Notes: generated from the letters alone by a model not told the origin. A stretch of DNA of 64,000 nucleotides from Candidatus Aenigmatarchaeota archaeon (GCA_016193585.1 JACPRW010000003.1:263303-327302); one strand, 5' to 3'; numbered from the stretch's first letter, positions 1,200-55,061 are shown. Program-made: numbers and translations.

Positions 1200-1313
1200 T
1201 TGGTTCACTTACACCCAAAAAGCAAAGCTTTTTGGTGCACCGGAAAACTTTGTTTTCCGCGTGTAGCGGACAACAAAAGTAATATGTCGGTATTCTTTTG
1301 TTGGTCCACTATA
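1200..1313. repeat. Composite palindromic repeat: end of module A + double hairpin X1 (1212-1263) + module D (1264-1313)
   Basis: Near-identical to 10510-10623; D also at 21185-21236 in the opposite orientation. Confidence 0.9.
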
Positions 1314-1321
1314 ATCACATT

Positions 1322-1422
1322 GCGATGGTAGTCTAGCTGGTAGGACACGGCCCTGCCAATCTTCTGAAAAACCTCGTGTATGCAGACCGGCCGAGACCCG
1401 GGTTCAAATCCCGGCTGTCGCA
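1322..1422 (+). tRNA. tRNA-Gly(GCC), canonical 37/38 intron (1359-1387)
   Basis: Cloverleaf; anticodon stem CGGCC/GGCCG; BHB central helix CTGC/GCAG. Confidence 0.93.
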
Positions 1423-1471
1423 TTCTCACGTCTAGTTAAGAAAACAAAACAGAAAGAGCAAAAAAGAAAAC

Positions 1472-2104
1472 TTAGACTTTGACTTTCCTGACGTATCGCT
1501 TTCCCACGTCTGACACTGCGTCCTTGAGACCGAGACCGAGCGCAAGCGCAACGCCAAGGCCGACCGACGCTATGACAACGACGAGCACGTTATTGACGAG
1601 GGACGCCGTTATGCCCAGTGTTTCCAGCGCAAGCGCAATGGAAACGTAGAGCACAAAAAAGAAAAGCGTCTTGCCAACAACAGTTGCCCAGAGTTTCTGT
1701 GCCTTCTGGAGATGCGATTTGATGTACTCTGCCAGGACATAACCGACGACCATGATGACTGCTGCGCCGATTACGTTCGGGACAAATCGCCGTACGTCTG
1801 ACATCCAGAGGGTGAGCTGCTCAACCTGCAGCACTGCGACCGCCGCGGTGATGAATGCTATGTAGATCCACCATCGCACGATCATCGAGAACATCGCTGC
1901 AAGGCTGTACACTGGTTTCTGCGTTTCGGAGACGTAGTAATCTAGTCGCACTCTGTCAAGCAGTTCGTGCACGACCCGCCCGACTACCTTGCCGATGACA
2001 AGGCCGATGACGAGCAGGATTACTCCGCCCACGAGATTTGGCAGGAAGACCACAGTTTGCGTTGTCAATTGTGTCAGAATAAGTCCGACATCCTGCAATA
2101 CCAT
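1472..2104 (-). CDS. Membrane protein with conserved TM-helix repeats (MscS-associated/CmpX-like)
   Basis: Two repeats of the PNLVGGVILLVIG / PNVIGAAVIMVVG motif, multiple TM segments. Confidence 0.75.
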   Translation of the reverse strand: MVLQDVGLILTQLTTQTVVFLPNLVGGVILLVIGLVIGKVVGRVVHELLDRVRLDYYVSETQKPVYSLAAMFSMIVRWWIYIAFITAAVAVLQVEQLTLWMSDVRRFVPNVIGAAVIMVVGYVLAEYIKSHLQKAQKLWATVVGKTLFFFVLYVSIALALETLGITASLVNNVLVVVIASVGLGVALALGLGLKDAVSDVGKRYVRKVKV

Positions 2105-2195
2105 ATGGTCACCTACGGTAGTCTTGTGCGGGCCCGTTAATAAAGGTTTCTGTAGTGGCGTAGTGCGGGTAAATTACGAAGGAAAAAAGAAAAGG

Positions 2196-2373
2196 CGCCG
2201 AGAGCAGGAATTCCAGACGGTTTCTTTTGGTTGAGCTTTTCTTTCCAAAAGAAAAGGTCATTTGAACCTGCGCGTGCCAGAGGCACACTAGCTCTCAAGG
2301 ATCGCCTGTCATCTCATGTTGATCAAACCTTGAGTTGGCATCTAGCGCGTTTACCAAGTTCCGCCATCTCGGC
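2196..2373 (-). tRNA. tRNA-Ser(UGA) with introns at 30/31 (2301-2341) and 59/60 (2210-2260)
   Basis: Acceptor GCCGAGA/TCTCGGC, long variable arm, BHB helices CGCT/GGCG and TTCA/TGGA; mature 86 nt. Confidence 0.9.
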
Positions 2374-2402
2374 ATAAGGCGAGAACCTATGGTTCTCTTC
2401 CT

Positions 2403-2552
2403 TGCTCAAAGAACTCAAGTTCTTTGGCATCTCAAAGAAGCTTTGCTTCTTTGCAGATATGGTGAATTGCACTGGTTATGTCCTGATATTATTTGCAATT
2501 CACCTATAGAAAATTGCGCGTTAATACGACATAAGCTGCGCAATTATCTATA
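2403..2552. repeat. Composite palindromic repeat: double hairpin + module H (2458-2508) + module I (2505-2552)
   Basis: H-I pair recurs (reverse complement, with nested inserts) at 42255-42478. Confidence 0.9.
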
Positions 2553-2619
2553 TCAACCTTCTCTCCTAATGAAAATATTAAAAGAAGGTCGTTCCAGCCG
2601 CCATGCGTCATGACAGTCA

Positions 2620-3153
2620 TCATAGCATGACCTTCGGCATCAGTGTGTAGGCGATGGTAGCCTTCTTGTACCGCGCATCGAGGCATACGTCGTCCGAGGC
2701 CGCGTAGCTGGACGCAGCTACATCGAGATAGTGCCGCTCGTCGTTTCTCCCGCTGTATTCTTGGTGGCGGACGCTGATTCTGTATTTAGGCCGCCCCCGG
2801 TGCCCTTCGTCCAGCTGCAGCATCGCGTTTTCTATTGATGCAACAGCATCGGCGTCGTAATCGTTGCGCAGCATGGCATCAAACCATCGCCGCCAGTAGC
2901 TGCCCGGGACATCGGGGTGGCCGGTGAATGCGTCATCCAGAAAATCTGCAATTGCTTTCGGAGGGACGCCATCCATTCGGTCATGGTAGCGCTCCGTGTC
3001 CATGAGCCAGTGTAGGTAATACTCGGTGTGGCAGTCTATGCTCGCACGCACAGAATCGTCAAGGTTCCTGACAAGTTCCTTCAGCTCCCAAAAAGTCATC
3101 TGCGTATCAGCTACCTTCTTCCTTCCTGCAAGCCAGTTTGTTATTGTTCTCAC
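2620..3153 (-). CDS. Hypothetical protein
   Basis: 177-aa ORF, no motif recognised. Confidence 0.6.
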   Translation of the reverse strand: MRTITNWLAGRKKVADTQMTFWELKELVRNLDDSVRASIDCHTEYYLHWLMDTERYHDRMDGVPPKAIADFLDDAFTGHPDVPGSYWRRWFDAMLRNDYDADAVASIENAMLQLDEGHRGRPKYRISVRHQEYSGRNDERHYLDVAASSYAASDDVCLDARYKKATIAYTLMPKVML

Positions 3154-3157
3154 TGAA

Positions 3158-3367
3158 TCACCGGTGCCGTATGGCGCGCAGCAGCTGGTTCTGCACGCTT
3201 TTTGGAACGCTTTCGAAATGAACGATGGTGTCAGACGGGTACTGCTTCATTTTTCTGGTCAGGTGTGATGCCGAGAGGTCGTTGTAGAGAGCATCGCTGT
3301 CGATGATTTTGTACGCTTCTCTTGCTGCATCGTACACGATTCGTACCCTGTGTCTCATACGCTTCAC
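3158..3367 (-). CDS. Small hypothetical protein
   Basis: 69-aa ORF ending 4 bp before the next gene. Confidence 0.5.
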   Translation of the reverse strand: MKRMRHRVRIVYDAAREAYKIIDSDALYNDLSASHLTRKMKQYPSDTIVHFESVPKSVQNQLLRAIRHR

Positions 3368-3500
3368 ACCATGTATTATACGCGTGGGACACTATATACA
3401 TATCAAAGAAATTAGAGGATAAAATACAGTATAAACGGAATTAATAATATTTTTTTAAATAAAAGAAAGCTTTTTATGTACAATTTCCAACAATAATGGC

Positions 3501-3965
3501 ATGATAGACGTCACCGATATGGAGATATTGAAGGAGTTGAGCAAAAATTCCAAGAGAAAAATTCATCAATTGGCAGGCGTGCTGCGCTACCCGCGCTCAA
3601 CCATCCATAACAGAATAAGGAAGATGGAGAAAAGCGGCATCATCAGGACGTACATAGCTGTTATTGACCATGCAAAAATAGGCAGGCCAGTCGCCGCGTT
3701 TGTGCACCTCGTCATAACTTCCAAGCAGAGCGCTCACGAGATTGCAAACAAACTCAAAAGCTTCCCCTACGTCGAGGAGGTGCACGTGGTAACAGGGCAA
3801 TATGATATCATTGCCAAGGTCAGGTTCAAGGATACCGAAGATCTGGGAAAATTCATCTTCGACGAGGAGAAGGGCCTGCGCACCATGGAAGGCGTCGACA
3901 GGACGGAAACGATGATTGTCGTGAACACCGAGAAGGAATACGGTCTCGTCCAGAAAGAAAAGTGA
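3501..3965 (+). CDS. Lrp/AsnC family transcriptional regulator
   Basis: N-terminal HTH (D..ILKEL..NS..STIHNRIRKMEKSGII) plus AsnC ligand domain (VTGQYD). Confidence 0.95.
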   Translation: MIDVTDMEILKELSKNSKRKIHQLAGVLRYPRSTIHNRIRKMEKSGIIRTYIAVIDHAKIGRPVAAFVHLVITSKQSAHEIANKLKSFPYVEEVHVVTGQYDIIAKVRFKDTEDLGKFIFDEEKGLRTMEGVDRTETMIVVNTEKEYGLVQKEK

Positions 3966-3984
3966 GCGCCGGCGGCAGGAATAA

Positions 3985-4269
3985 TTATACCTGCACGTAT
4001 TTCTTATGCGCAGCTTCGGCAGTCATAATTTCAGTAACCTTTACGGTTTTGCTGTTCTCTTCTATAATGTAAAAAGCCCTGTAATCGCCTACCCGCATGC
4101 GGAAAGCGCTCTTCGAAGTGCCTTTAATTTCCTTTTTATCACCAATCCCCTGCCCGGGATACGGGGATTCTTTGAGAAGCCGCAATGATTCCTTTATGTT
4201 TTCCATCCTGCGCTGGCCAAGTGATTCAAGATATTTCAGGGCACCATGCTCAATAAGAACTTTCCACAT
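3985..4269 (-). CDS. relE: RelE/ParE family type II toxin
   Basis: FRMRVGDYRAFY motif, 94 aa, downstream of a small antitoxin with TGATG overlap. Confidence 0.9.
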   Translation of the reverse strand: MWKVLIEHGALKYLESLGQRRMENIKESLRLLKESPYPGQGIGDKKEIKGTSKSAFRMRVGDYRAFYIIEENSKTVKVTEIMTAEAAHKKYVQV

Positions 4270-4460
4270 CAGCCCAGCTCCACAAATCTGCCCGATTTGG
4301 CTATTCTGTGCTGTGTTTCGACAAGGTAATCATTCTTCAGCGCCTCTTCATAGAAAGTAACAAGCCTTTCGATGAGCGAATCGTACGTGTCTTCCATCGT
4401 CCCCAAACTTTTCAGCCTATCGCGGGTCATGGACTCTATCTGGATCGACGTTTTAGCCAT
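4269..4460 (-). CDS. Antitoxin (RHH/CopG-like)
   Basis: TSIQIESMTRDRLKSLG..TYDSLIERL pattern; coupled to the toxin. Confidence 0.8.
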   Translation of the reverse strand: MAKTSIQIESMTRDRLKSLGTMEDTYDSLIERLVTFYEEALKNDYLVETQHRIAKSGRFVELG

Positions 4461-4533
4461 ATCTATAATCTTTATAGAAAATTATATAAACTTATTGCTC
4501 AGCAATGATAATACATAATTGAGGTGTTGTGAG

Positions 4534-4659: not shown

Positions 4660-4699
4660 TTCCTTTAATAAATTGCCGGATGATTTTTAAAGGGGTTCT

Positions 4700-10377: not shown

Positions 10378-10623
10378 TATAGTGAACCAAGTAAATAATC
10401 AGGTATTATAGCAATACAAGGAAATAAACAGGATATATTACTTCCTTGTTTGCTATATGTGAAACAAGAAGCAATATGCCGATGTTATTTTCTTGTTTCA
10501 CTATATAGCTTGGTTCACGTACACCCAAAAAGCAAAGCTTTTTGGTGCACCGGAAAACCTTGTTTTCCGCGTGTAGCGGACAACAAAAGTAATATGTCGG
10601 TATTCTTTTGTTGGTCCACTATA
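10378..10623. repeat. Nested composite repeat: A split by B (10407-10457) + C (10454-10505), then X1 (10522-10573) and D (10574-10623)
   Basis: Each module recurs elsewhere or shares the consensus; junctions are TA/TATA. Confidence 0.9.
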
Positions 10624-10719
10624 AAGCAGGCTTGGTGTTCTGAAAATGAAGTCTCGAGGAAATAAAAGAAGACTTCTTTTCAAAGACACCGTTTATGAGA
10701 TGCATGTGGTGCTCTGAAA

Positions 10720-21184: not shown

Positions 21185-21281
21185 TATAGTGGACCAACAA
21201 AAGAATACCAACATATTACTTTTGTTGTCCGCTATAAGTGAACCAAGATATAATACCTGATTATTTACTTGGTTCACTATA
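21185..21281. repeat. Composite repeat: module D (21185-21236) + intact module A (21235-21281)
   Basis: Reverse complement of the A/D modules at 1200-1313 and 10378-10623, lacking X1. Confidence 0.9.
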
Positions 21282-31464: not shown

Positions 31465-31713
31465 ATCAGCAGAAAACGATGCAGAAGGAAAACTGCCCTT
31501 AAGGCGTGCAGGGACATAGATTCTGCCGCGGTCGTCAATCTTCGCGGAAAACGTCCGGGCGGCAAAGCTAGAGAAATCGCGCTTCAGATTGCCGCGCTTA
31601 CTGCAGGTGAAGGCACTCGCCTGTGGGGTCTATCAACTCTCACTGGTAACACCTTCCATTCCTTACCGCACAGTTCTACTTAAAGATTTTGTGGGTAAAT
31701 GGTTGTGTTTACT

Positions 31714-31808
31714 TATAGTTAACCAAGTAAAGAATCCGGATATTATAACTTGGTTCACTATATGTGACCAACTTGTGTAATACCTGAATATTAAGTTGGT
31801 CAGCTATA
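31714..31808. repeat. Two single-hairpin modules: A' (31714-31762) + J (31759-31808)
   Basis: TATAG...CTATA termini, shared TATA junction, AATNCNGGATATTAT-like loop. Confidence 0.85.
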
Positions 31809-31923
31809 AAGGTTGATTTTTCCCATGTTAAAAAATTGGTTGTTTCGTTGTTTTTTGTTAAATTTTCGGTTACATAAAGTAGAATTAAAAGGTTTATGAT
31901 TCATGTAATAAAATCTGATTTTA

Positions 31924-32706
31924 ATGACAAAATTAAATCTCATACGTCCTTTAGCTTTCATTGACTTAGAAACTACTGGTCTCAATACGCAACAAGATCG
32001 TATTGTAGATATATGCGTAACAAAAATTTACCCAGATGGAAAAGAAGAATCATTGAGTTCTTTTATTAATCCAACTATACTGATTTCTGTTGAAGCTACA
32101 AATATCCATGGCATAACAAATGCAGATGTTGAAGGTAAACCAGTTTTTGGAGAATTTTCATCACAATTATTTGATTTTATAGATGGATGTGACTTGGCCG
32201 GATTCGGAATAATAAAGTTCGATTTTCCTGTTCTTGAATCTGAATTCAAGAGAGCCGGAATAGTTTTTTCAAAAGATGGCAGACAAATAGTCGATGTTCA
32301 AAATATTTATCACAAATTAGAACCCAGAGATTTAAGTGCCGCACACTTAAGGTACTGTGGCAAGGTTTTAGAAAATGCACATAGAGCACAGTCCGATGTT
32401 AAGGCAACTATAGATGTGCTTGAATCTCAATTGGAACACCACACTAATTTGCCACATGATATTTTCGGTCTGAATGAATTTTGCAACCCGAAAGACCCTA
32501 CGTGGATTGATGAGGACGGAAAATTTGCATGGTTTAAGGACGAGGCTATTGTAAATTTTGGAACTCACAAAAGCAAGACACTTCAATCTATATGTAGGGA
32601 TAAACCTGACTACCTTCAATGGATTATAAGTAAAGATTTCTCACCGAAGGTCAAACAGATAGCTGAAGACGCCCTTCGAGGCAAATTCCCAATACGGCAA
32701 GCATAA
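31924..32706 (+). CDS. DEDDh 3'-5' exonuclease (DnaQ/PolIII epsilon-like), AT-rich
   Basis: FIDLETTG, FD, HRAQSDV; far more AT-rich than neighbours by eye. Confidence 0.92.
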   Translation: MTKLNLIRPLAFIDLETTGLNTQQDRIVDICVTKIYPDGKEESLSSFINPTILISVEATNIHGITNADVEGKPVFGEFSSQLFDFIDGCDLAGFGIIKFDFPVLESEFKRAGIVFSKDGRQIVDVQNIYHKLEPRDLSAAHLRYCGKVLENAHRAQSDVKATIDVLESQLEHHTNLPHDIFGLNEFCNPKDPTWIDEDGKFAWFKDEAIVNFGTHKSKTLQSICRDKPDYLQWIISKDFSPKVKQIAEDALRGKFPIRQA

Positions 32707-32723
32707 AGTTAGGTCTTGTGAAT

Positions 32724-32820
32724 TATAGCTCTACAAGGAAACAACCAAGATATTATTTCCTTGTGAGCTATATGTGAAACCAGTTGTAATATATCCAGAT
32801 TATTTACTGGTTTCACTATA
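32724..32820. repeat. Two single-hairpin modules: K (32724-32772) + F (32769-32820)
   Basis: Same consensus as the other modules. Confidence 0.85.
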
Positions 32821-33073
32821 ATTATAATACATTTGGCATGCTGGTACACGCGCTCAATCATGATCGCGCTATTATGGAGCGTGTGCTGAATGAGATGTAT
32901 GAAATAAACAATTGGAAAGAGAGAAAAGGGCTAAAAGCCGAATGCTGCAAGAGTACTTCTGTCCAAATCGACATGATGCCGAGTTACTGAAAAAAATTCT
33001 TCCGGATATATTCCCACTTTTCACTCTCATACGCTCGGCGCGCTTTTATTACAACGGGAAGCTAATACTACGC

Positions 33074-33715
33074 ATGTTCTCGCTTTCGCCGACGGCGCTC
33101 AACGAGTTCCGTGACTGCCCGCTGTGCTTCTGGCTGCACCGGAGGAAAGGCATCGCTTCTCCCGGCGGCCCCTTGCCGACCATCACCAACGGCTTGGACC
33201 GCGTCATCAAGGAGTACATGAACCGTTACCGTCCGCGCGGCAGCATCCCGCCGTTCCTCGAGGGTAAAGTTCCGGGAAGGCTCATTGAGTTTCTGCCCGC
33301 GACGCTCGCGTGCAGCATCGGCGGCAATACGCTTTCCGGCAGGCTCGACGAATGCCTCGTCATGGACAGCGGCAACCACGCGCCGCTCGACCACAAGACG
33401 CGCGGATTTGCGCTCAAGGACGGCCATGAGGTGCACCCGTCGTACCAGCTGCAGATGGACTGCTATGCGCTGCTCCTGCAACGGAGAGGGCATGCCATCG
33501 GCGACGAGGCGTTCATCGTCTACTACTATCCTGATTTCGGCGAACTGCACCAGGGCATCCCCTTCAGGGTGAGCGTGCACCGGCTCAGGACGAATCCGCG
33601 CCGCGCGGAACAGGTGTTCGCGGATGCGGTAGCGTGCCTGCAGGGAGAGAAGCCCGAGCCCGGAGCCGGCTGCGGCCTGTGCGCGTACGTGGGCGAGCGG
33701 TTGCAACCTTCTTAA
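33074..33715 (+). CDS. PD-(D/E)XK nuclease (RecB/Cas4-like)
   Basis: LSPTALNEFRDCPLCF, GRLDEC..LDHKT, QMDCYA, CGLC; start reassigned. Confidence 0.85.
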   Translation: MFSLSPTALNEFRDCPLCFWLHRRKGIASPGGPLPTITNGLDRVIKEYMNRYRPRGSIPPFLEGKVPGRLIEFLPATLACSIGGNTLSGRLDECLVMDSGNHAPLDHKTRGFALKDGHEVHPSYQLQMDCYALLLQRRGHAIGDEAFIVYYYPDFGELHQGIPFRVSVHRLRTNPRRAEQVFADAVACLQGEKPEPGAGCGLCAYVGERLQPS

Positions 33716-34357: not shown

Positions 34358-34930
34358 ATGGCGCGGAAAAGAAAAACAGCCACGAAGACGCTGCAGGAAA
34401 TTGAGAAGAAAGAGGAAGCAATCGAGAAGATCGAGGAACGCATCGAGCAGCTGGAGGAGAAAGACCAGGAAACGCTGGAGAAAATAGAGCAGAAAGAGGA
34501 AGCAATCGAGCAGATAGAGGAGCGCATTGAGAAAGCCATCGTGGGCTTGGGTAATTTCACCCTCAAGAAAAGCTATCTGCTCGAGACGACGCGCGCGCTC
34601 GCTGGCGCAGCGCTCGGCGTGAGCGTCGGCATGGGGCTGCGCATCATCCCGGAAATCGCCGAAAACCTGCCGTGGGTCAATATCGCCGGCATCCTGATGT
34701 TCATCGTGTTCGTGGCCATCGTGCTCATCTACCGCACGGAGCGCGTCACCGGAAGAGGTCATGTCCTCGGCAAGCTGTTCGAAATAGTGTTCATTTCCCT
34801 GATGGTCGAGATCACGGCACTGTCGCTCTTCAATATATTGCCGCCAGACGCCGAAAGCGTGGTGAAGGTGCTTGTTGTCGGCCTGTTCCCGACGATGTCA
34901 GGGGCAATTACGTTCAGGATAATGGATTGA
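34358..34930 (+). CDS. Membrane protein with N-terminal 28-aa coiled-coil repeat
   Basis: KEEAIEKIEERIE / KEEAIEQIEERIE repeat then 4 TM. Confidence 0.7.
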   Translation: MARKRKTATKTLQEIEKKEEAIEKIEERIEQLEEKDQETLEKIEQKEEAIEQIEERIEKAIVGLGNFTLKKSYLLETTRALAGAALGVSVGMGLRIIPEIAENLPWVNIAGILMFIVFVAIVLIYRTERVTGRGHVLGKLFEIVFISLMVEITALSLFNILPPDAESVVKVLVVGLFPTMSGAITFRIMD

Positions 34931-34931: not shown

Positions 34932-35029
34932 GGCCGCTGCCGAGATTTGAACTCGGTCCGAAGGCTCACCGCAGCACGTTCGCCAAGTGCATCCACAGGC
35001 CTGCATGCTGCCGTTACACCACAGCGGCC
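34932..35029 (-). tRNA. tRNA-His(GUG), canonical intron (34967-34992), encoded G-1
   Basis: Acceptor GCCGCTG/CAGCGGC, loop CTGTGG|A, BHB CTGT/GCGG. Confidence 0.9.
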
Positions 35030-42254: not shown

Positions 42255-42681
42255 TATAGATAATTGCGCAGCTTATGTCGTATTATAGCAATACAAGGAA
42301 ATAAACACGATATTACTTCCTTGTTTGCTATATGTGAAGCAAATGTATAATATCGGTATTATTTATTTGCTTCACTATAACGCGCAATTTTCTATAGGTG
42401 AATTGCAAATAATATCAGGACATATAGTGAACCAAGTAAATAATCAGGTATCCACTATAACCAGTGCAATTCACCATACATGCAGAAGCAATGCTTCTGC
42501 TGTACAGGTGGAACAGAGTTCCACCATGTATCTTGAAGAGCAAATCTCTTCGAGGTGCTCAAAAACCAAAGGGTTTTTGGCATGCCAAAGAAGCGCAGCT
42601 TCTTTGAGCATGGCAGAAAGCATGCGCTTTCTGAGCACGACACGCGTAATATGGGATACGACGCACGGAGTGCGGGGTATT
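42255..42681. repeat. Large nested array: I[B+E] + H[A/D remnant] + X3 + four-hairpin chain + Z motif
   Basis: Comparison with uninterrupted H-I at 2458-2552 and with 54803-55061. Confidence 0.9.
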
Positions 42682-42870
42682 ATGGGACGAATCAAGACTG
42701 CCGATATCAAGAAGGCTTCAGGGGAACTTCTGTCTGCCTATAGCAACAAGTTCTCAACCGATTTTGCAGCCAATAAAGAGGTACTCAAGGAGTTCAATAT
42801 CACTGACGAGAAGCGGACCAAGAACAAGATAGCCGGTTACATCACGCGGAAGATGAGGCAGCGGGCGTAG
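42682..42870 (+). CDS. rps17e: 30S ribosomal protein S17e
   Basis: MGRIKT...F..DF..NK...KRTKNKIAGYIT; true start 42682 (the ORF-track N-terminus is repeat-derived). Confidence 0.95.
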   Translation: MGRIKTADIKKASGELLSAYSNKFSTDFAANKEVLKEFNITDEKRTKNKIAGYITRKMRQRA

Positions 42871-43395
42871 CTAGCCTGTACGGCTCTCGAGCACCTTCTC
42901 CAGAATAAGCTTGAACCACGGCGTGTAGCTATCGGGATGCTTCTCGACGTCTTTCTCAAGCGTGGCGACATCGACATATTGGTAATCCTTTATTTCCTGC
43001 GGGTCCGGCTTTACATGCCCACCGTAGGTGCCGATAAAGACCCAGTCAACCTCGTGCTCCCCCCATTCGCTGTCGTACGTTGCGTTGTACTGGAACTTGA
43101 ACAGAAACCGGAGGCTGCACGAGAACCCCAGTTCCTCTTGCAGCCGCCGGTGCGCAGCTGCGGCAGTGTCCTCGCCCTTCCGCGGGTGGCTGCAGCAGGC
43201 GTTCGACCAGTAGAGCGGCCACGTTTTTTTCTTCCCGCTGCGCTGGGTGATGAGCATCTTATCCCCGTCAAAGATGAACACCGAGAATGCGCGGTGGAGC
43301 ATTCCCTTGCCGCGGTGGCACTGTTCCTTCCCTTCGTAGCCCAGCTCATCATCGTTGTCGTCAACAAGAATAATGCGCTCCATATCGTTAATCAT
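42871..43395 (-). CDS. idi: Isopentenyl-diphosphate isomerase type 1
   Basis: LHRAFSVFIF, QRS..K.TWP..WSNACCSHP, EHEVD. Confidence 0.95.
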   Translation of the reverse strand: MINDMERIILVDDNDDELGYEGKEQCHRGKGMLHRAFSVFIFDGDKMLITQRSGKKKTWPLYWSNACCSHPRKGEDTAAAAHRRLQEELGFSCSLRFLFKFQYNATYDSEWGEHEVDWVFIGTYGGHVKPDPQEIKDYQYVDVATLEKDVEKHPDSYTPWFKLILEKVLESRTG

Positions 43396-43408
43396 CCCAA
43401 TAAAATAT

Positions 43409-43610
43409 TATAGTGAAGCAAATAAATAATACCGATATTATACATTTGCTTCACATACATGGTAAAGCAAAGCTTTACCTGTACGGGTGAAACGTTGTTT
43501 CACCATGTATAGCAAACAAGGAAGTGATACAAGGTGGATTCCATGAATCCACCTGTACAGGAGAATCTTCGATTCTCCTCGTATCGTGTTTATTTCCTTG
43601 TATTGCTATA
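43409..43610. repeat. Composite E (43409-43457) + X2 (43458-43507) + B interrupted by X5 (43530-43581)
   Basis: Recurs at 44765-44912 (inverted, without X5) and 51634-51771 (truncated). Confidence 0.92.
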
Positions 43611-44723
43611 ATCCTGCTTCACGCCGCTGCCGTCGATTGCAACGTCAAGCGTGCGGATGCCTGCCGCATCCCACGCTTCCCTCACGCGACGTGCTGTTGC
43701 CTCGTCGAAGCACACCGCAATGCCGCAATCGCCGCCACCCGCTCCTGAGAGCTTGCCCGCGGCTCCGCATGCATTCGCGGCTTCTGCCAGTTTTCTGAGG
43801 TCAGGCGTTTCGATGGGCACGCCGGTCTCGTCGCCGAGCCGCCGCAATGCGTCCTCGTTCTCCCTGAGCAGCGCGATTATTCTTCCTTTGTCACCGTTCT
43901 TCCACGCCTCTACTGTGCTTTCCGCAATGCCTCCTATCGCCTGCATGAGACCGGCGTACCGCTCCTTGTTGATTGCCTTGAATTCGTTCATTCGTTTGAC
44001 CATCGTGCTGGTGGACGCCGGCTCTTTCGTCCAGCCAACCAGCAACATGAGGCCTGAAGGATTGGCGAGTTTCTCGACATGAAAGCTTGGCCATTGTTCC
44101 GAAACAACGTCCGAGAGTCGTTTCTTTTCAAGTTCTCGCACGAGCCATTCGGGGTCAAAGCGGCTGTATACAAAGACGCCGCCGAACGTCGAAGCCGCAA
44201 CGTCGAAGCCGCTTCCCACTTTCCCCTGTCCTGTGTAATGGGCAATGGCCGCAAGCTTGTAAATCTCCTCGTTCGTCGCCTGGTGCCCGTGCAGGTCGAG
44301 TATCGCCGCAATCGCGGCGACGACAACGGCAGCCGACGAGCCGAACCCAACCTTTGTATGCTCGCCATCGACAGAAACAAGAGTTTCTCTGCTCTCTGTG
44401 GTTATCTTGAACGGGACAAATTTCAGGCCCTTTTCTTCTGCGTACTTCACTGCTACGGTTACCGCCTCGCCAAGCAGCCTGAGCGTTTCCTTGGTTTTGT
44501 CGTCAGCGTTCATGAAAACGAGCTTGCCGTTAAGCATCTTTGCGCGGGCATCAGTTATCTTGAATTCCCGTGCGGTGACAGAAATGCCATTATATCCGGC
44601 AAGCGGCTCGACAAACACGTGAACGCGGCTGTTGACTGCCGCAACAATGCCTTTGGTTCCCATTTCAAGAATAGCCCACTCGCCGCTGACGAAGAGCTTG
44701 CCGGGGGCGCTGTAGTGGATCAT
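43590..44723 (-). CDS. Phosphomevalonate kinase (ERG8/Gram-positive type, GHMP family)
   Basis: SAPGKLFVSGEW, KVGFGSSAAV, GSGFDVAAS, KLSGAGGGDCG; C-terminal YSNTRK* comes from repeat B. Confidence 0.88.
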   Translation of the reverse strand: MIHYSAPGKLFVSGEWAILEMGTKGIVAAVNSRVHVFVEPLAGYNGISVTAREFKITDARAKMLNGKLVFMNADDKTKETLRLLGEAVTVAVKYAEEKGLKFVPFKITTESRETLVSVDGEHTKVGFGSSAAVVVAAIAAILDLHGHQATNEEIYKLAAIAHYTGQGKVGSGFDVAASTFGGVFVYSRFDPEWLVRELEKKRLSDVVSEQWPSFHVEKLANPSGLMLLVGWTKEPASTSTMVKRMNEFKAINKERYAGLMQAIGGIAESTVEAWKNGDKGRIIALLRENEDALRRLGDETGVPIETPDLRKLAEAANACGAAGKLSGAGGGDCGIAVCFDEATARRVREAWDAAGIRTLDVAIDGSGVKQDYSNTRK

Positions 44724-44764
44724 ACAAAACACTTATAGGAGAAGCATTTTAAACAGCGTATCTG

Positions 44765-44912
44765 TATAGCAATACAAGGAAATAAACACGATAGTACTTC
44801 CTTGTTTGCTATACATGGTGAAACAACGTTTCACCTGTACAGGTAAAGCTTTGCTTTACCATGTATGTGAAGCAAATGCATAACATAGGTGTTATTTATT
44901 TGCTTCACTATA
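44765..44912. repeat. Composite B + X2 (44814-44863) + E
   Basis: Inverted copy of the 43409 composite. Confidence 0.92.
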
Positions 44913-44938
44913 AACGCATTGCGGGCAATAACGGTTAT

Positions 44939-45901
44939 ATGGCAGCCCTATACACCCCGAAGGTGAAAATTGCAGTTGCGAGCAGCTTCGAGGGCATAGT
45001 AAATAACGGAGCACCGGAATGCGCACTTGTTTCACTGAATGCATATCATGAGCAAAATCCCAGCTCGTTTTTCGAAAGAAAATTAACCGCATCCGAGTTT
45101 AATCAGTCATATCGAAGTGCTGATGCTGTACAGAAGTTTCTTGCGCTGCGACCGCTGGTAGAAGTCGCAGAGGATTACAGAACGGTACTTGACGTGATAG
45201 AACGCTATCCAGCAGAATCCGGTGTATTTGCTGCAAACCCCAATGACGTCAAAACGTATCTGTTTCTTGCGGAAAAGTTCAACGGGCTTAAGCAGGAAAA
45301 GCAGGAAGAAAGGGATGAATTCGGCAAAGGTAAGGACAGCTTTTTCTACAAAGAAAGACGCGCATTGCAGAAAGCCGGCTATGAGGCGTGGCTTAACACG
45401 CAAGCTCCTTTTGATGATGCGTTGCCACAATTCCGCCACTTGGTCGAAACGCAAGTATGGGATGGCGGAGAGCCTGTCAGCGGCTTTTTCCCTCGGTTTG
45501 CGACGTCAAAAGATGAAGCTTCGACATACGCGCTCTGCAGGTTCTACGCGGCGGTGAAGAAACTGGATGTGTCGGACATGGAAGGTACGCGATGTATCAT
45601 CCCGCGGGATGGTATCATAGGCATGGAAACAGTTCCTTCACGCAATAAAGTGCAGCAGCTCGTTGTTATTGCCGACCGTCTGGAAGTCCCGCGAAGCCAG
45701 GTATGGCGGCTGAACGACCGCTACGACCCTCGGCAACAGGAAGAATTATTTTATAACGGATTCGTGTACCAGTTTTTCGTGCCAGGGTATGCAGCACCTG
45801 TTGAAATAGAAAGAGCCCGGCATGACAGGTTTGTCAGGGTTCTTGAAAGAAAAAGCTTTGCACAGCAACTGGCAGCATATGCAGAACAGTGGGGGTTCTA
45901 G
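44939..45901 (+). CDS. Degenerate HAD-like protein
   Basis: Resembles 47312-48019 (LRPLVEVAEDY, FATSKD) but motif I reads SFEG; start reassigned (the ORF-track N-terminus is repeat-derived). Confidence 0.6.
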   Translation: MAALYTPKVKIAVASSFEGIVNNGAPECALVSLNAYHEQNPSSFFERKLTASEFNQSYRSADAVQKFLALRPLVEVAEDYRTVLDVIERYPAESGVFAANPNDVKTYLFLAEKFNGLKQEKQEERDEFGKGKDSFFYKERRALQKAGYEAWLNTQAPFDDALPQFRHLVETQVWDGGEPVSGFFPRFATSKDEASTYALCRFYAAVKKLDVSDMEGTRCIIPRDGIIGMETVPSRNKVQQLVVIADRLEVPRSQVWRLNDRYDPRQQEELFYNGFVYQFFVPGYAAPVEIERARHDRFVRVLERKSFAQQLAAYAEQWGF

Positions 45902-49145: not shown

Positions 49146-49509
49146 TCTTGAATGCCTTGAAAATTGCTGCCATCGTACAAAAGACTTCCGTGAAGTCTTT
49201 TGGCGACTTAGGTTAATCCTCGATTAACCTCAAGTCAGGCAGCAGATGCAAAGAAAAGCAACGCTTTTCTTGCACTGGAAGACTGCACGTCTTCCTTGTG
49301 CAACAAGGCATTCGGGATCTTCAAAGAGCAGAGCTCTTTGAGATCTCAAAAACCTCTGGTTTTTGCAGATGCCATGCTCCACGGAAACCACCGACTGCAG
49401 TCGGTGGTATAGAGGAGCATATCATGCTGAACATACAGTATAGCAGGTTCGAACGAAAAGTTCCAGTATTATTCGAACCTGCTATAAGGGAAACCTGAGG
49501 TTTCCCTTG
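49146..49509. repeat. Continuous ~360-bp array of hairpins including an AGATCT-linked double hairpin (49317-49370) and module L (49439-49486)
   Basis: At least nine perfect or near-perfect stems read directly from the sequence. Confidence 0.85.
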
Positions 49510-49518: not shown

Positions 49519-49636
49519 TGGGCCCGGCAGGAATTGAACCTGCGACCTTCGCCGTTTCTTCAACACTTTCCTTCTGAAAGCTTAGTGAAGGCGACATTTG
49601 GTAGACACTCGTCTCATACCACTAGACTACAGGCCC
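49519..49636 (-). tRNA. tRNA-Val(CAC) with introns at about 23/24 (49598-49614) and 36/37 (49556-49584)
   Basis: BHB helices GGTA/TACC and CTTC/GAAG; only these boundaries give a 7-nt anticodon loop; mature 72 nt. Confidence 0.88.
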
Positions 49637-50887: not shown

Positions 50888-51654
50888 AGGTTTCGCCTGT
50901 AAAAACAGGAAAGATTGTCGCCGGGCAGGACCTCTATTCTTTGCTCGACACGTGCCTGGAAACATGCGAAGAAAAATCACTGCTCGCCATCACGTCCAAG
51001 ATAGTTGCTCTATGCGAAGGCCGCATCGCCAGCATGGATGCGGACAAAAAAGCCCTTATACAGCAGGAAGCCGAATATTATCTGCCTCATGAAGAAAGCA
51101 GATACAACACCACGCTTGCGATAAAAGGGAACATCATCGTCCCTGCTGCTGGCGTGGACGAATCGAATGGCAACGGCTGCTACGTGCTGTGGCCTTTGGA
51201 CCCGCAGAAATCAGCGAATGAGATACGGTCGTACCTGCGCAAAAGATTCTTTCTGAAGCATGCCGGCGTGCTTATAACCGACAGCAGGACAACGCCGCTG
51301 AGACGGGGGACGACGGGTGTCGGCATCGCGCATAGCGGCTTTTCCGCCATCAAAAATTACATAGGTCGTAAAGACGTATTCGGCCGTACGATGAAGATAA
51401 CCAGGGCAAACATACTGGATGCTCTGGCAGCAGCAGCCGTCGTCGTTATGGGAGAAGGTGCAGAACAGACGCCCCTTGCTGTACTCGAGGACATCCCGTT
51501 AGTGGCGTTTCAGGAAAGGAACCCGACACGAAAAGAGCTGCAAGACCTGAGCATAAGCATCGAGGACGACCTGTACGCGCCTATCCTCAAAAGGGCGAAA
51601 TGGAAGAAGGGAGGGCAATATAAAAAATCTTTTTATAGTGAAGCAAATAAATAA
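50884..51654 (+). CDS. CofE-like gamma-glutamyl ligase (putative folate polyglutamylation, FolC2-like)
   Basis: ITSKIVALCEG, AGVDESN, ITDSRTTPLRRG, GEG.EQTP; C-terminal YSEANK* comes from repeat E. Confidence 0.85.
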   Translation: MKVSPVKTGKIVAGQDLYSLLDTCLETCEEKSLLAITSKIVALCEGRIASMDADKKALIQQEAEYYLPHEESRYNTTLAIKGNIIVPAAGVDESNGNGCYVLWPLDPQKSANEIRSYLRKRFFLKHAGVLITDSRTTPLRRGTTGVGIAHSGFSAIKNYIGRKDVFGRTMKITRANILDALAAAAVVVMGEGAEQTPLAVLEDIPLVAFQERNPTRKELQDLSISIEDDLYAPILKRAKWKKGGQYKKSFYSEANK

Positions 51655-51771
51655 TACCGATATTATACATTTGCTTCACATACATGGTAAAGCAAAGCTT
51701 TACCTGTACAGGTGAAACGTTGTTTCACCATGTATAGCAAACAAGGAAGTAATACAAGGTGGATTCCATGA
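51634..51771. repeat. Truncated composite E + X2 + B/X5
   Basis: Near-identical to 43409-43546. Confidence 0.92.
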
Positions 51772-51822
51772 TGCCGTGGCACTCGCATACGTTGTATCCG
51801 TTCTCTGGCTTCTCAGGATAAT

Positions 51823-52467
51823 TTAGCCGATGAGCGTGCCTTTTTCCTTGCCCTCGAGAACGTCGAGAAGCGCTTTCGGTTCCTTCCCGTTCATGATGAC
51901 GGTCCGTATGCGGTGCTTGGCGATGAGGTCGATGGCCAGCGGGTCGAGGATGCCGTAATCGCCCGGCATGCCTTTTTTCGCGTACGCGCGCAGTTCGCCA
52001 AACGGGATGAAAGGGATTTTCTTCGCATGCGTGAACGTGTTCGGGTCTTTGTCGTAGACGCCGTCGACGTTCGTCAGTTTTATGAAATAATCAGCCTTGA
52101 TAGCCACCGCCGCGTACGCGGCGTTCGCGTCGGTGCTTCTCCCCGGAGCGATGCCGCCGATGACGCCGCTCGTGGAGGGGGTGATGTCCCCGAGCGCGAA
52201 CAGGGGTTTTTTCCCCACGAGCAGTGAGAGAAAACGGACGTTGGCACGGAGCAGCTCTATCGCGACCAGTTCCATTTCTTCGTTTTTCATGCCGAGTTGC
52301 TGGAGTATCCGGTAATAATTCCGTACGAATGCGCCGCCGCCGATGGAAACGATGAGCTGGTGCTCATGCAGTCGTTTGAGAACAGGGACGAGCTTCTTGA
52401 AATAGGGAACGCGCGGGCCATCGTCAGCAATGGCAAGCGAGCCGCCGATTTTCACGACAAGCTTCAT
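51823..52467 (-). CDS. pyrH: UMP kinase (archaeal type)
   Basis: VVKIGGSL, GGGAFVRNY, PGRSTDA, TNVDGVYDKDP. Confidence 0.93.
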   Translation of the reverse strand: MKLVVKIGGSLAIADDGPRVPYFKKLVPVLKRLHEHQLIVSIGGGAFVRNYYRILQQLGMKNEEMELVAIELLRANVRFLSLLVGKKPLFALGDITPSTSGVIGGIAPGRSTDANAAYAAVAIKADYFIKLTNVDGVYDKDPNTFTHAKKIPFIPFGELRAYAKKGMPGDYGILDPLAIDLIAKHRIRTVIMNGKEPKALLDVLEGKEKGTLIG

Positions 52468-52494
52468 AGCAAAACAAGTCTTTTATAGTTTCGC

Positions 52495-52971
52495 TTGTTT
52501 AATAAAGTCATGGTCCCTGCTGAGCGATACAAGAAGATGCAGGAAAAATTCCAGCTCCCGCACCTTACCGAGCTCAGGCAGACGTTCAAAATCGAAATCG
52601 ATGAGAATGGGGAGATTATCGACCAGATTCGCAACGAGATTTCTGACCATCTTTTCACGTTCACCGAACGCATCATAGAGCCGATAATATCCGGTTCCGA
52701 AGCGCTCTGCTGCCTCTACGAGCAGGGAATGCTCACGAAGGAGGAAAAGCAGCGCCTGTTCGAACTCTACAGGCAAATCCAGTCGCTCAAGTGGGAAAAC
52801 AACCTGCTCCTCATCAGGCACGACGACAAGGCAACAGCGAAATGGATACGGAAGACGTGGGATTTCTGGAACGAGGACCTCGAGAAGGACATGACCAAGC
52901 TGTGCAAGAAGCTGTCCGCAAGCTGGAAGGATTTAAGATTCAAAAAGGAAAGAACAAGTTATCATGGTTAA
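52495..52971 (+). CDS. Hypothetical protein
   Basis: 158-aa helical ORF with host-like codon usage. Confidence 0.7.
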   Translation: MFNKVMVPAERYKKMQEKFQLPHLTELRQTFKIEIDENGEIIDQIRNEISDHLFTFTERIIEPIISGSEALCCLYEQGMLTKEEKQRLFELYRQIQSLKWENNLLLIRHDDKATAKWIRKTWDFWNEDLEKDMTKLCKKLSASWKDLRFKKERTSYHG

Positions 52972-53357
52972 AGAACAAAAAACAAAAAACGCATTATTTT
53001 ATTATTTCTTCTTTTTCTTCTTTGCCATTGTCACCACCAAAATATTTCTATACTAACACATGAGGTCAGTTCATATATATAGTTAACGGTATTTCCGTAC
53101 ACACGATCGCAATTTTTCTGATTGAGTTCTCGGCGAGCGGATGCAGCGCAATTGCGTGAAATGCGTTTGGAAAAGAATCGTACATGATGTTGCTGTCATT
53201 TGTCTCGCACATCAGGCACGCTGTTCTTGTGGAGCAGCGATGTGTTCTTTTACAGCAGCAACAAAGGAAAGAACACGCCGTTGCGAATCGGGAATGCCGT
53301 ATCCGCTGTTTCCGGTAAAGTATTTATACTGCGGACTGCATTATTATTTAGAGCATT

Positions 53358-53753
53358 ATGAAAGGCCTTTCACTGCCGATAAACCTCATCGTCATTCTGG
53401 CGATTGCGGTGCTTATCCTTGTCGTGGTTTCTGCGTGGGTCGTCGGAGTCCTCACGTCAAACCAGCTATCACTCAACGACAACGACGCGTGGCAGAAAGG
53501 CTGCGGAATCGCCAAGGCGCGGGGCTGCGTGACTAGTGATTTTGCACCGGCCTCGGCCGTCGCAGGCTTGTACATCAGCGGTTACGACCCGCTGGGAAAT
53601 GATCCCCGCGATTCTACCACAAGAGCAACGACATGCTCCCAGACGACCATAACCACGAGTGGCTGCACCGATGATACGGTAAACAATGCATGCACGAGAG
53701 CAGTCCAGGGGACGGGCAACGAAGAATGCAGAAGGCTGTGCTGCGGCTTCTAA
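53358..53753 (+). CDS. Stand-alone pilin-like protein
   Basis: MKGLSLPINLIVILAIAVLILVVV; Cys-rich C-terminus. Confidence 0.75.
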   Translation: MKGLSLPINLIVILAIAVLILVVVSAWVVGVLTSNQLSLNDNDAWQKGCGIAKARGCVTSDFAPASAVAGLYISGYDPLGNDPRDSTTRATTCSQTTITTSGCTDDTVNNACTRAVQGTGNEECRRLCCGF

Positions 53754-54763
53754 AGCCACCGGTCGAGCGACTTCTGGCCTTTTTCCTTCTCTTCGCCAAG
53801 CTTGCGGATTGCGCTGTCGATGCGCTCCTCCGAGAAGTCGTGCTCGTTGCACAGGAGCTTCCTGAGCAGCTGCTTGTTGACCTCGCCAAAGGTGATGCGG
53901 TAGTCCCCTGCAGCAGGGTGTGTGAAGAACTCGTATATGTCTTCGGCAGCCACGTCAAAATTCCATGAAACCGTCTCAAGCACCCCGTCGAGCGTTTTCT
54001 TGTCGCGGACGAGTTCCAGCGCCTTCTTCGGCCCGAAGCCGGCAACGCCTCCCGGGTTGTAGTCGGTGCCGACGAGGATGCCGGCGATAATGAGCTGCTC
54101 CTGCGTGATGCCGAGGCGCTCGAGCGTCTCCTTGAGCAGGATGAGCTCAGGCTTGACGTCAACAATGCCCGTGCCCCGCTTCCGCTTGCCGGTTATCGAC
54201 AGATTCCGGACGAGGCGGGGGCAGCCGAACAGAAGCGCATCATAGTCCTGCGTCGCCGTTGCATAGGCATCGCCGTTTCTGGTCATGAGAGAGCAGAGCG
54301 CTTCTCCCTCCGACGGCGCCTGGACGACGGGGACGCCGAGCGCCTCAAGCAGCAGCTTGCTGTCCTCGATGATGGCATCGGTAACCGTTACGCTTCGCTG
54401 GGCGTATTTCCTGGCAGCCTCGAAATCATTCCGTGCGAGCGCTTCCTGCCATTCGCGCATCGCCTCTGCCCTGACGTCGCGCCGCTGTTCCGCTGTCGCG
54501 TGCTTGAGTGCAGGCGGCTCGCCGTCAAAGACGTAGATAGGCCGCACGTGCGCCTCGAGCAGCTTGAGCGTCCTGTAGAACAGACCGGACAGGTGAGAAG
54601 TGACGTTGCCTCGCGAATCCTTGAGCGGTGTCCCGTCCTGCTGCCTGATTATTGAAAGGAACTGGTATATCCAGTTGAGCGCGTCAATCGCGACCCTTTT
54701 TCCTGCCAGCTGCTCGAAAGAAATTTCATTGCTCTCTATAAGTGCCGTCAGCTGTACGCCCAT
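53750..54763 (-). CDS. fen: Flap endonuclease 1
   Basis: IDALNWIYQFLSIIRQ.DG, FDG.PP, APSEGEA, GTDYNPGG. Confidence 0.97.
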   Translation of the reverse strand: MGVQLTALIESNEISFEQLAGKRVAIDALNWIYQFLSIIRQQDGTPLKDSRGNVTSHLSGLFYRTLKLLEAHVRPIYVFDGEPPALKHATAEQRRDVRAEAMREWQEALARNDFEAARKYAQRSVTVTDAIIEDSKLLLEALGVPVVQAPSEGEALCSLMTRNGDAYATATQDYDALLFGCPRLVRNLSITGKRKRGTGIVDVKPELILLKETLERLGITQEQLIIAGILVGTDYNPGGVAGFGPKKALELVRDKKTLDGVLETVSWNFDVAAEDIYEFFTHPAAGDYRITFGEVNKQLLRKLLCNEHDFSEERIDSAIRKLGEEKEKGQKSLDRWL

Positions 54764-54802
54764 TGCTCATACTCTTGTAAACAAAGTTTAAAACGGGATA
54801 AC

Positions 54803-55061
54803 CTTGAAGAGCAAAGATCTTCGAGTTGCTCAAAAACCAAAGGGTTTTTGGCGTGCCAAAGAAGTGCAGCTTCTTTTGGGCATGTAGAAAGCACGTGCTT
54901 TCTGAGCACGACGCAGCATACAACAAGGAGTTCCGAAGAACTCCTTGTGTACACAAAGACTTTCGAAGAAAGTCTTTGTTGTAAGCCAAGCGTTGCTGCG
55001 GGGCATGGTCCATTTAATATGGGATACGACGCAGCATAAGCCAAGCGTTGCTGCGGGGTAT
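54803..55061. repeat. Four-hairpin chain + duplicated Z motif, first copy interrupted by double hairpin X4 (54921-54981)
   Basis: Homologous to 42532-42681; local filled/empty pair with TA duplication. Confidence 0.9.

Follow-up and report, generated by a model that had tools for sequence, protein, structure and literature searches.

Aenigmatarchaeota-like archaea carry a previously undescribed family of mobile elements of about 50 bases, which we call X elements and describe here from a 64,000-nucleotide stretch of DNA (the window) and its relatives. X is almost certainly a real insertion element. Its mobile unit is very probably an obligate dimer of adjacent stem–loops (5′-CA…TG-3′) separated by a palindromic linker of 4–6 nt. 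By analogy with known systems, we suggest that X elements are non-autonomous, structure-defined units of about 50–60 bp that may be moved in trans as folded DNA, following the logic of IS200/IS605 or REPIN/RAYT (probability of roughly 0.45). A literature search returned no description of such elements in DPANN or Aenigmatarchaeota.

Eight X elements were reported in the window by an earlier note, and all eight were found where it placed them, with TA on both sides of each (Table 1); a relaxed scan revealed no further X elements in the window. All are intergenic, between gene ends. The TGTACA linker that had been ascribed to three X2 copies is present in two of them, the copy at 43458 having TGTACG, and the CA…TG ends ascribed to most elements stand as conserved termini, but X5 ends in CG. 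The three X2 and two X1 copies are not independent insertions; they belong to copied larger composites with 98–99% identity. Nor are the variants unrelated in sequence, as had been proposed: their stems have in common a 5′ arm that is rich in purines (roughly GGNGAANC), and individual modules turn up again in different genomes. The window contains 37 hairpins (stem of at least 8, loop of 3–5) versus 3.15 in 100 dinucleotide shuffles, 13 double hairpins versus none, and 8 double hairpins with a GTAC or GTGCAC linker, again versus none; a chance origin of the double hairpins is excluded. An Rfam scan of the window identified four tRNAs only and no match to X elements.

Table 1 X elements, empty sites and class-1 hairpin pairs in the window
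Feature	Position	Sequence or type	Flanks and context
X1 copy 1	1212–1263	Type iii: CAC-hairpin-GTGCAC-hairpin-GTG	TA at 1210–1211 and 1264–1265; host is a 115-nt composite repeat, 1200–1314
X1 copy 2	10522–10573		Within composite 10510–10624, 98% identical to 1200–1314
X1 empty site	21233–21236	CTTGGTTCACT-TATA-GCGGACAAC	Minus strand
Class-1 hairpin pair (X host type)	31716–31806		Insertion versus empty site of contig L177; TA duplicated, 31714–31715 and 31807–31808
Empty TA	31761–31762		Class-1 pair junction; X elements at homologous site in contigs L011, L018 and L030
Class-1 pair 2	32726–32818		Insertion versus L177; TA duplicated, 32724–32725 and 32819–32820
X5 empty TA	42311–42312		Hairpin B loop; X5-filled at 43530; second empty copy at 44792–44793
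X2 empty TA	42331–42332	GCTA-TA-TGTG; GCTATATGTG (42327–42336) is the empty counterpart of GCTATA[X2]TATGTG	Class-1 hairpin B/A junction; filled at 44814, 43458 and 51683
X3	42479–42528	Type i: GCAGAAGC / TGTACA / GGTGGAAC	TA at 42477–42478 and 42529–42530
X2 copy a	43458–43507	GGTAAAGC / TGTACG / GGTGAAAC	Hairpins A′ and B′ on either side
X5	43530–43581	Type ii: TACA-AGGTGGATTC hairpin-GTAC-AGGAGAATC hairpin-CGTA	In hairpin B′ loop
X2 copy b	44814–44863		Inverted in window; orientation relative to B and A unchanged
X2 copy c	51683–51732		In 139-nt block 51633–51771, 99% identical to 43408–43546
X5, truncated second copy	51755–51771		Window stops here; contig L001 carries on with the remaining host hairpin
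X4	54921–54981	Type ii; stems of 11 and 12 bp, linker GTAC	Occupies a loop TA of a GCAGCA/TGCTGC hairpin
X4 empty TA	55037–55038	GCAGCATAAGCC (55037) is the empty counterpart of GCAGCATA[X4]TAAGCC	Duplicated GCAGCA-TA-AGCC hairpin

A search with half of X2 recovered about 75 more copies in 18 archaeal assemblies, mostly of Aenigmatarchaeota, and all are two-hairpin units. The same pattern gave 17 unstructured matches in non-target genomes (mostly bacterial, three from high-GC archaea) and none in viral contigs. The left hairpin lies outside the search pattern; it nevertheless pairs at 8 of 8 positions in 50 of the 84 matches and at 7 of 8 in 12 more, and is built from 14 distinct stems. The two-hairpin structure is conserved over genomes of 31–54% GC. 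The earlier note had held that a lack of further copies or empty alleles would tell against such elements; we found roughly 100 more copies, as well as 36 empty sites. The 93 dimers form 49 stem-pair families, only 9 of which occur in more than one flank context (2–3 unrelated contexts), and much of the copy number is therefore due to duplication of larger composites. No X elements occur in 17.5 kb of a syntenic relative.

Hairpins occur in twos or fours. Chains comprise 84 dimers, 12 X-type tetramers and no X-type trimers, and each tetramer is one dimer within the central TA of another. In one genome both states of such a site are seen, empty in contig L032 (7069–7112) and filled in contig L029 (7756–7857); one inner pair is nested in three or more different outer pairs in one assembly and in four or more in another. 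The proposal of a dimeric mobile unit defined by its fold is supported; its termini (CA…TG) and palindromic linker are conserved, and TA lies on both sides. The further suggestion of assembly from monomers of about 25 nt was rejected: no true monomers were seen, and the 25 apparent single hairpins that we examined are all halves of imperfect or cut dimers.

Among 47 distinct elements, both partners have changed in 13 of the 16 stem pairs, showing that the hairpins are maintained by compensatory changes. Flanks and linkers also co-vary, in a pattern based on about three independent lineages: TACAT occurs with TGTACA (41 cases), TATAT with TATACA (13) and TGTAA with ATTACA (7), mixed combinations are absent, and a TGCA/TGCACA/TGTG variant was found as well. 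Each terminus, together with its flanking dinucleotide, is complementary to one half of the linker, and the termini do not co-vary with each other; the elements thus form two side-by-side extended hairpins rather than a T. Minimum-energy DNA folding likewise gave two side-by-side hairpins, one extended via TACA/TGTA, with the outer stem absent, and pair 3–26 is compensated where pair 3–52 is broken or a wobble. The T shape put forward earlier, in which an outer stem closes a three-way junction as in the AAV inverted terminal repeat, is rejected on both counts.

Matching empty sites were identified for 36 elements of the TGTACA/GTAC type, and nearly all are a single TA. The three filled and empty pairs in the window (X2, X5 and X4), from which TA duplication had been deduced, are real. 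The TA…TA of the types other than X1 can also be read as target plus element end. Contrary to the earlier account, duplication does not extend to X1. Elements of this type (GTGCAC) inserted CAC…GTG without duplication in four of four comparisons, and the X1 empty site already contains TATA, so that duplication is not needed; X1 is therefore not a possible product of a TA-duplicating DDE enzyme.

In 51 of 85 cases an X site falls in the loop of a strong hairpin, at its foot or between two such hairpins, compared with 73 of 800 control intergenic TAs. (Minimum-energy folds leave the TA unpaired in 66% versus 55%; the strong-hairpin context test was used instead.) X elements thus prefer to land next to or within other hairpin repeats, in their loops, at their feet or between them; the central TA of another X is one such site, and nesting of this kind yields four-hairpin chains and the re-pairing of hairpin modules. 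Nesting in repeats could also mean retention at harmless sites, not target choice. The class-1 hairpin pairs that serve as hosts share the TA-bounded two-hairpin design of X, and both pairs that are lacking in a 93% identical segment of contig L177 are clean insertions.

No transposase was found in cis with X. In approximately 610 kb of X-bearing DNA, no open reading frame (ORF) lies between X-like termini and none is present in multiple copies, and a search for distant inverted X-type termini enclosing an ORF yielded only repeated composites. No gene at the X-bearing loci is found repeatedly between two X elements, and a Pfam search of about 50 ORFs in the window returned housekeeping genes and no transposase. 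Clustering of multi-copy ORFs and paralogues from X-bearing loci yielded three IS200 Y1 genes as the only transposase-like family; Y1/HUH transposases do occur in related assemblies (three loci). We found nothing to connect these genes with X: their end hairpins are unrelated to X, and no X elements occur in 234 kb around 80 relatives of the genes at metagenome loci. Y1 homologues are absent from the window, and none of the three genes lies in about 36 X loci sampled from the most X-rich assembly.

How might such elements move? Whether X folds as a single strand or is extruded as a cruciform, its two ends and its centre would be brought together, and an enzyme supplied in trans would recognise the two neighbouring hairpins and cut and join at their feet. 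In this model a dimer would bind the two hairpins, with cleavage sites set by internal-guide pairing, as for IS200/IS605 TnpA and REPIN/RAYT. A hairpin-guided, HUH-like single-strand route is our tentative choice, somewhat short of an even chance, and is favoured over an IS630/Tc1 route. Two features run against an HUH enzyme: TA on both sides combined with CA…TG ends is the hallmark of IS630/Tc1-mariner, and X is pseudo-symmetric, whereas IS200/IS605 ends are asymmetric. Hairpin conservation could merely reflect geometry, given that the ends of a 50-bp element must meet whatever the enzyme. It is possible, if unlikely, that a DPANN-type system reads shape only, that is, two adjacent hairpins with feet that pair with the palindromic linker, and that the same machinery handles 50-bp X elements and 90-bp class-1 pairs with an enzyme that is neither a classical IS200 Y1 nor an IS630 DDE. 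In that case the linker would be a built-in guide whose central dinucleotide matches that of the target: TA for TA and, in one variant, CA for TG. X elements and class-1 pairs could also nest mutually and re-pair modules. We similarly doubt a rival account in which X elements are ultra-short MITEs that a DDE transposase of the IS630/Tc1-mariner type moves by cut-and-paste of double-stranded DNA, duplicating the 2-bp TA target. Each hairpin would then be a pair of inverted binding sites of about 10 bp, and cruciform extrusion would do no more than bring the ends close. The TA on both sides, the empty sites, the clean TA duplication in class-1 pairs, the 5′-CA…TG-3′ termini and halves similar enough for terminal inverted repeats (CA(T)GG…/…CC(A)TG) all fit this account, and IS630 elements are known in archaea (PMC13343696). 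The X-bearing DNA nonetheless lacks an X-bounded or multi-copy ORF, and X1 inserts without duplication; furthermore, covariation within hairpins and between termini and linker is not required of a double-strand binding site, and 49 stem-pair families among 93 dimers are unlike the usual sequence-homogeneous MITE bursts.

The near-identical composites around the X2 and X1 copies, the 40 of 49 families confined to one flank context and the shared orientation of X at the B/A junction in several genomes would also be expected if X were not self-mobile but an optional module of hairpin composites spread by duplication, gene conversion or transfer, with presence and absence explained by precise deletions that the hairpins stimulate between the TAs on either side. 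This is improbable: nine families occur in 2–3 unrelated contexts, one inner pair recurs in different outer pairs, the same kind of site is occupied by different X pairs, and deletion alone cannot account for X reaching so many sites. That the host maintains the hairpin pairs, for instance for protein binding or as signals for RNA 3′ ends, stability or termination, is compatible with a mobile origin and agrees with the intergenic placement between gene ends and with structure conserved across a wide GC range; such roles are reported for REPs, the nearest analogue in bacteria (PMC3733652). It is nevertheless improbable, considering that homologous sites are optionally occupied, that X is absent from the 17.5 kb of the syntenic relative and that the symmetry of X leaves no strand preference. 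Archaeal terminators are oligo-T tracts longer than the 3-T runs that are the only ones in X stems, and X has no Rfam match. Template switching during replication can generate palindromes, and one repeat-associated assembly discrepancy exists in the window (51771/51772, relative to contig L001); that X elements are by-products of template switching or assembly errors is nevertheless barely credible. Termini, linker and stem consensus are conserved in 18 independent assemblies (termini and linker already refute the by-product reading), the X4 region is 100% identical in four independent short-read contigs (L001–L004), and inserted X sequence is unrelated to its flanks.

Several known systems resemble X in part. 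In bacteria, REPINs (REP doublets) are mobilised by RAYT tyrosine transposases (PMC3116915). Like X, they are tiny, extragenic and non-autonomous, with the doublet as replicative unit, higher-order clusters, hairpins kept by compensatory changes and movement thought to involve folded single strands and an enzyme supplied in trans from a single-copy gene. In a REPIN, however, two REPs in inverted orientation fold into a single long hairpin whose head, GTAG or CGTC, is conserved, and REPINs flank their RAYT gene, whereas X is archaeal, had no associated Y1 in the DNA examined and consists of two independent side-by-side hairpins with TACA/TGTA feet, a palindromic linker and TA flanks. IS630/Tc1-mariner (Stowaway-like) MITEs and the Correia elements of Neisseria have TA duplication, CA…TG-type termini, terminal inverted repeats, and intergenic and nested insertion in common with X. 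Known examples are about 80–500 bp in length, homogeneous in sequence and defined by the match of their inverted repeats to a transposase gene. By contrast, X is 50–60 bp, structure-defined and spread over many stem-pair families, with one subtype lacking duplication and no parent element found in X-bearing DNA. IS200/IS605 elements and their minimal derivatives (PATEs) have a hairpin at each end and cleavage sites that adjoin the hairpin feet and pair internally, reminiscent of the covariation of X termini and flanks with the linker halves. They also insert without duplication, as X1 does, and Y1 genes occur in related genomes; their ends are asymmetric and strand-specific, with insertion 3′ of a fixed 4–5-nt target, in contrast to the pseudo-symmetry of X, in which only TA is conserved. 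The small dispersed repeats (SDR) of heterocyst-forming cyanobacteria, described by Elhai et al. in 2008 (a work cited in PMC3116915), are reportedly palindromic single units of 21–27 nt that, like X, are very small and nest mutually and in MITE-like elements, and that, unlike X, are bacterial and without a TA-bounded two-hairpin design. The AAV inverted terminal repeat, a T-shaped HUH Rep substrate, shares two small side-by-side internal palindromes with X; the outer stem that closes the T finds support in X from neither folding nor covariation, and X has no terminal-repeat role. The palindromic GC clusters of yeast mitochondria, such as GC42, are hairpin-forming, about 40 nt and mobile (PMC4478555). 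They share with X a 2-nt target duplication, a constrained stem, units that merge and shuffle, and the lack of a known transposase, but are organellar, GC-rich single palindromes with an AG target, whereas X is archaeal and obligately two-hairpin, with a TA target. Integron attC sites and CRISPR repeats, which stand in arrays with cassettes or spacers between them, do not match X, which is single or nested rather than in regular arrays and matches nothing in Rfam.

At 50 bp, X would be among the smallest target-specific mobile DNA units. As a structure-defined family of the REPIN kind it would also be the first described in archaea, and its hosts are small-genome DPANN lineages, in which little selfish DNA is expected. 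Its many stems share one architecture, it nests in itself and it shuffles modules; it is a clean system that could reveal how a transposition enzyme reads shape over sequence and how the intergenic regions of reduced genomes arise. X elements disrupt short-read assemblies, in which contigs end at them, and they should be masked or modelled when DPANN genomes are annotated. Contigs of possible population variants, located by exact-protein look-ups, either end at repeats or are identical.

All eight X elements that the earlier note had placed in the window (units of about 50–60 bp in which a palindromic linker joins two hairpins: two X1, three X2 and one each of X3, X4 and X5) were verified by reading the sequence, each with TA on both sides, and the three comparisons drawn there between filled and empty sites were correct on re-reading. 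The window contains 37 hairpins with a short loop and a stem of 8 bp or more, compared with 3.15 in dinucleotide shuffles; its 13 adjacent hairpin pairs, and its 8 pairs joined by GTAC or GTGCAC, have no counterpart in the shuffles. X-type structures are therefore not chance products. Nor are they assembly artefacts, as the X4 region is identical in four independent short-read contigs. A relaxed scan revealed no further members in the window.

The elements fall into three subtypes that share a common plan (Table). Their stems, previously described as unrelated in sequence, have in every case a purine-rich 5′ arm (about GGNGAANC), and individual modules reappear with different partners; in a comparison of 47 distinct elements, both sides had changed in 13 of 16 stem pairs. 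Folded as DNA, the elements give z-scores of −5 to −9 and form two hairpins next to each other, one of which continues through TACA/TGTA, rather than the T-shaped junction proposed earlier. Changes in the left flank and terminus are matched in the 5′ linker half (TACAT with TGTACA, 41; TATAT with TATACA, 13; TGTAA with ATTACA, 7; mixed combinations, 0; a further variant is TGCA/TGCACA/TGTG), although only some three lineages underlie these variants. The left–right pairing that a T requires is broken or wobble in those sequences, and the covariation agrees with the side-by-side fold.

We searched one genome per species with the right half of X2 alone (GGTRRARCNNNGYTYYACCATGTA) and recovered 90 stretches. 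Seventeen were unstructured chance matches, mostly bacterial, with three in high-GC archaeal coding sequence; the others come from 18 archaeal assemblies of 31–49% GC, the majority labelled Aenigmatarchaeota. In every non-chance match, a second hairpin and then a linker (TGTACA in 55) lie 5′ of the matched hairpin. This left hairpin, which lay outside the search pattern, is perfectly paired in 50 of 84 matches and, in a further 12, has 7 of its 8 positions paired, with 14 different stems, whereas left-side pairing in chance matches never exceeds 5 of 8. The same half gave no match in viral contigs.

We regard X elements as miniature, structure-defined, non-autonomous mobile DNA. For 36 elements of types i and ii, a paralogous or homologous empty site was found, nearly always with a single TA, so the TA duplication claimed for the whole class stands for these types; it fails for type iii (X1), in which CAC...GTG was inserted without duplication in all four comparisons, one at a site without any TA. 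Chains contain two hairpins (84 cases) or four (12 X-type cases) and never three, and seeming singles proved to be half of a dimer that is imperfect or truncated. The dimer is thus the unit, and the monomers suggested earlier were not found. A tetramer is a dimer inserted in the central TA of a second dimer: within one assembly, an identical outer pair occurs both empty and filled (Table), and in one assembly a single inner pair is nested in at least three different outer pairs. Insertion sites are over-represented at strong hairpins, whether in a loop, at a foot or between neighbours (51 of 85 X sites, compared with 73 of 800 control intergenic TAs). Copy number is modest: 93 perfect dimers represent 49 stem-pair families, of which only 9 occur in more than one flank context. 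The three X2 and two X1 copies of the window are embedded in composites that are 98–99% identical, so the window itself documents few independent events.

The surrounding DNA is archaeal chromosomal, carrying a his operon and genes for HisRS, IleRS, GMP synthase, Nop56/fibrillarin, FEN1, mevalonate-pathway kinases, S17e and intron-containing tRNAs, with no transposase among the window genes; protein identity to the best orthologues, which come from assemblies of Aenigmatarchaeota and unclassified archaea, is 60–72%. Intergenic regions are crowded with other tiny hairpin repeats. The commonest, class-1 hairpins of about 45 nt with AT-rich loops, are nearly always paired, with TATA joining and flanking the pairs, and are the usual hosts of X. 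Two such pairs bracket a DEDD 3′–5′ exonuclease gene in a low-GC island (31600–32900; 30–38% GC compared with 54%). Both are missing from a syntenic but distant relative (L177), which has one TA per site and, over 17.5 kb, no X or class-1 element, indicating that the unit inserted at TA is the hairpin pair and that the insertions were recent. The exonuclease gene is 93% identical in DNA to the L177 segment, compared with 31–72% protein identity for the other L177 genes, so it was recently transferred horizontally. It occurs widely among Pacearchaeota and Woesearchaeota-type archaea.

In the X-bearing loci searched, no enzyme was found in cis: there were no multi-copy open reading frames (ORFs), no ORF with X-like ends and no gene that is recurrently flanked by X. 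Tentatively, with a probability of roughly 0.4, we propose that folded X is moved in trans by an enzyme that follows a logic like that of HUH, IS200/IS605 or REPIN systems; such an enzyme would read two neighbouring hairpins and cut at their feet. Selection on intrastrand pairing, including that between terminus and linker, the obligate two-hairpin unit and the subtype that inserts without duplication all favour this proposal. The main rival, an IS630/Tc1-type DDE enzyme, would account directly for TA...TA and CA...TG, and the hairpins might then serve only geometry by drawing the two ends of a 50-bp element close to each other; we consider it rather unlikely. Passenger spread combined with hairpin-stimulated deletion, or a host function of the hairpin pairs, may each be part of the explanation.

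Three IS200-type Y1 transposase genes (Pfam PF01797), on X-bearing loci of two assemblies, have their own flanking hairpins. We found no association between these genes and X: the end hairpins are unrelated to X, and no X occurs in 234 kb around 80 relatives. On L083 the Y1 gene lies between direct repeats, next to an AbrB/PIN-like pair.

Among known systems, X most resembles bacterial REPINs (PMC3116915), TA-duplicating MITEs, minimal IS200/IS605 derivatives and yeast mitochondrial palindromic GC clusters, whose 2-nt duplication, merger and shuffling (PMC4478555) are shared by X. Each has at least one defining feature that X lacks, and a literature search found no description of X elements in DPANN archaea.

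Table. Element layouts and positions of features in the window and in compared contigs (L numbers)
Feature	Location	Layout or remark
Subtype i (X2, X3)		CAT-hairpin-TGTACA-hairpin-ATG between TAs
Subtype ii (X4, X5)		CA-hairpin-GTAC-hairpin-TG between TAs; longer stems
Subtype iii (X1)		CAC-hairpin-GTGCAC-hairpin-GTG
Outer pair, empty	L032 7069-7112	
Outer pair, filled	L029 7756-7857	
DEDD exonuclease gene	31924-32706	within low-GC island
PD-(D/E)XK nuclease gene	32912-33715	after exonuclease gene and second class-1 pair
Class-1 site 1	window	...GTTTACT-TA-(pair)-TA-AAGGTTGA
	L177	...GTTTACT-TA-AAGGTTGA
Class-1 site 2	window	...GTGAAT-TA-(pair)-TA-ATTATA
	L177	...GTGAAT-TA-ATTATA
Y1 transposase genes	L017 2389-2832, L068 5360-5815, L083 1627-2031	
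tRNA genes	1322-1422, 34932-35028, 49519-49636	found by Rfam, missed by ARAGORN
Hairpin repeats abutting two of these	1200-1314, 49439-49508	
B/A composites	42284-44913	
NUDIX gene	42871-43395	
GHMP kinase gene	43590-44723	
110-nt arrays	42532-42641, 54803-54912	87% identical
A-rich hairpin chains	2380-2460, 49178-49370, 55660-55702	
Larger double hairpin (CAYJTG01)	L006 398-457, L028 1198-1257, L032 3583-3643, L055 7079-7138, L008 1207-1266, L070 7413-7472	

The tRNA genes missed by ARAGORN presumably contain introns. An ORF contains an in-frame 60–84-nt tandem repeat rich in GAG/AAG codons (34388–34531; E/K-rich, coiled-coil-like). At 51771/51772, the first loop of an X5 copy runs straight into unique sequence; at this junction the independent contig L001 has the remaining host hairpin and about 55 nt extra before rejoining the window, which reflects a collapse of the assembly at the repeat or else a strain deletion. 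Inverted copies of one composite of the class-1 hairpins B and A bracket each of the consecutive NUDIX and GHMP kinase genes, in an orientation that alternates from spacer to spacer. Their AT-rich loops and TATA ends stand about as far from some start codons as a promoter would (TATAA at 44909–44914, for instance, precedes the ATG at 44939 by about 28 nt). GCATGC/AGCATG and GTGCT/AGCAC connect the four short hairpins of the 110-nt array, which may be a structured leader or represent a further repeat class; in both copies, TAATATGGGATACGACGCA and then a small hairpin come next. One copy precedes the S17e gene; the other, close to EF-1beta, has a local duplication of GACGCAGCATAAGCCAAGCGTTGCTGCGGGG. 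The A-rich chains of short hairpins, with AGATCT/GATCT/GCATCT-type linkers and pairing flanks (ATCTG/CAGAT), appear to be a third hairpin-repeat class, and similar arrays occur on L010, L015, L025 and L081. Assembly CAYJTG01 carries a larger double hairpin, in which 12-bp stems with 4-nt loops are joined by AGCT or GGTAGA and enclosed by an outer stem of 9–10 bp (GGTCGACGT...ACGTCGACC); unlike X, this structure would be truly T-shaped.
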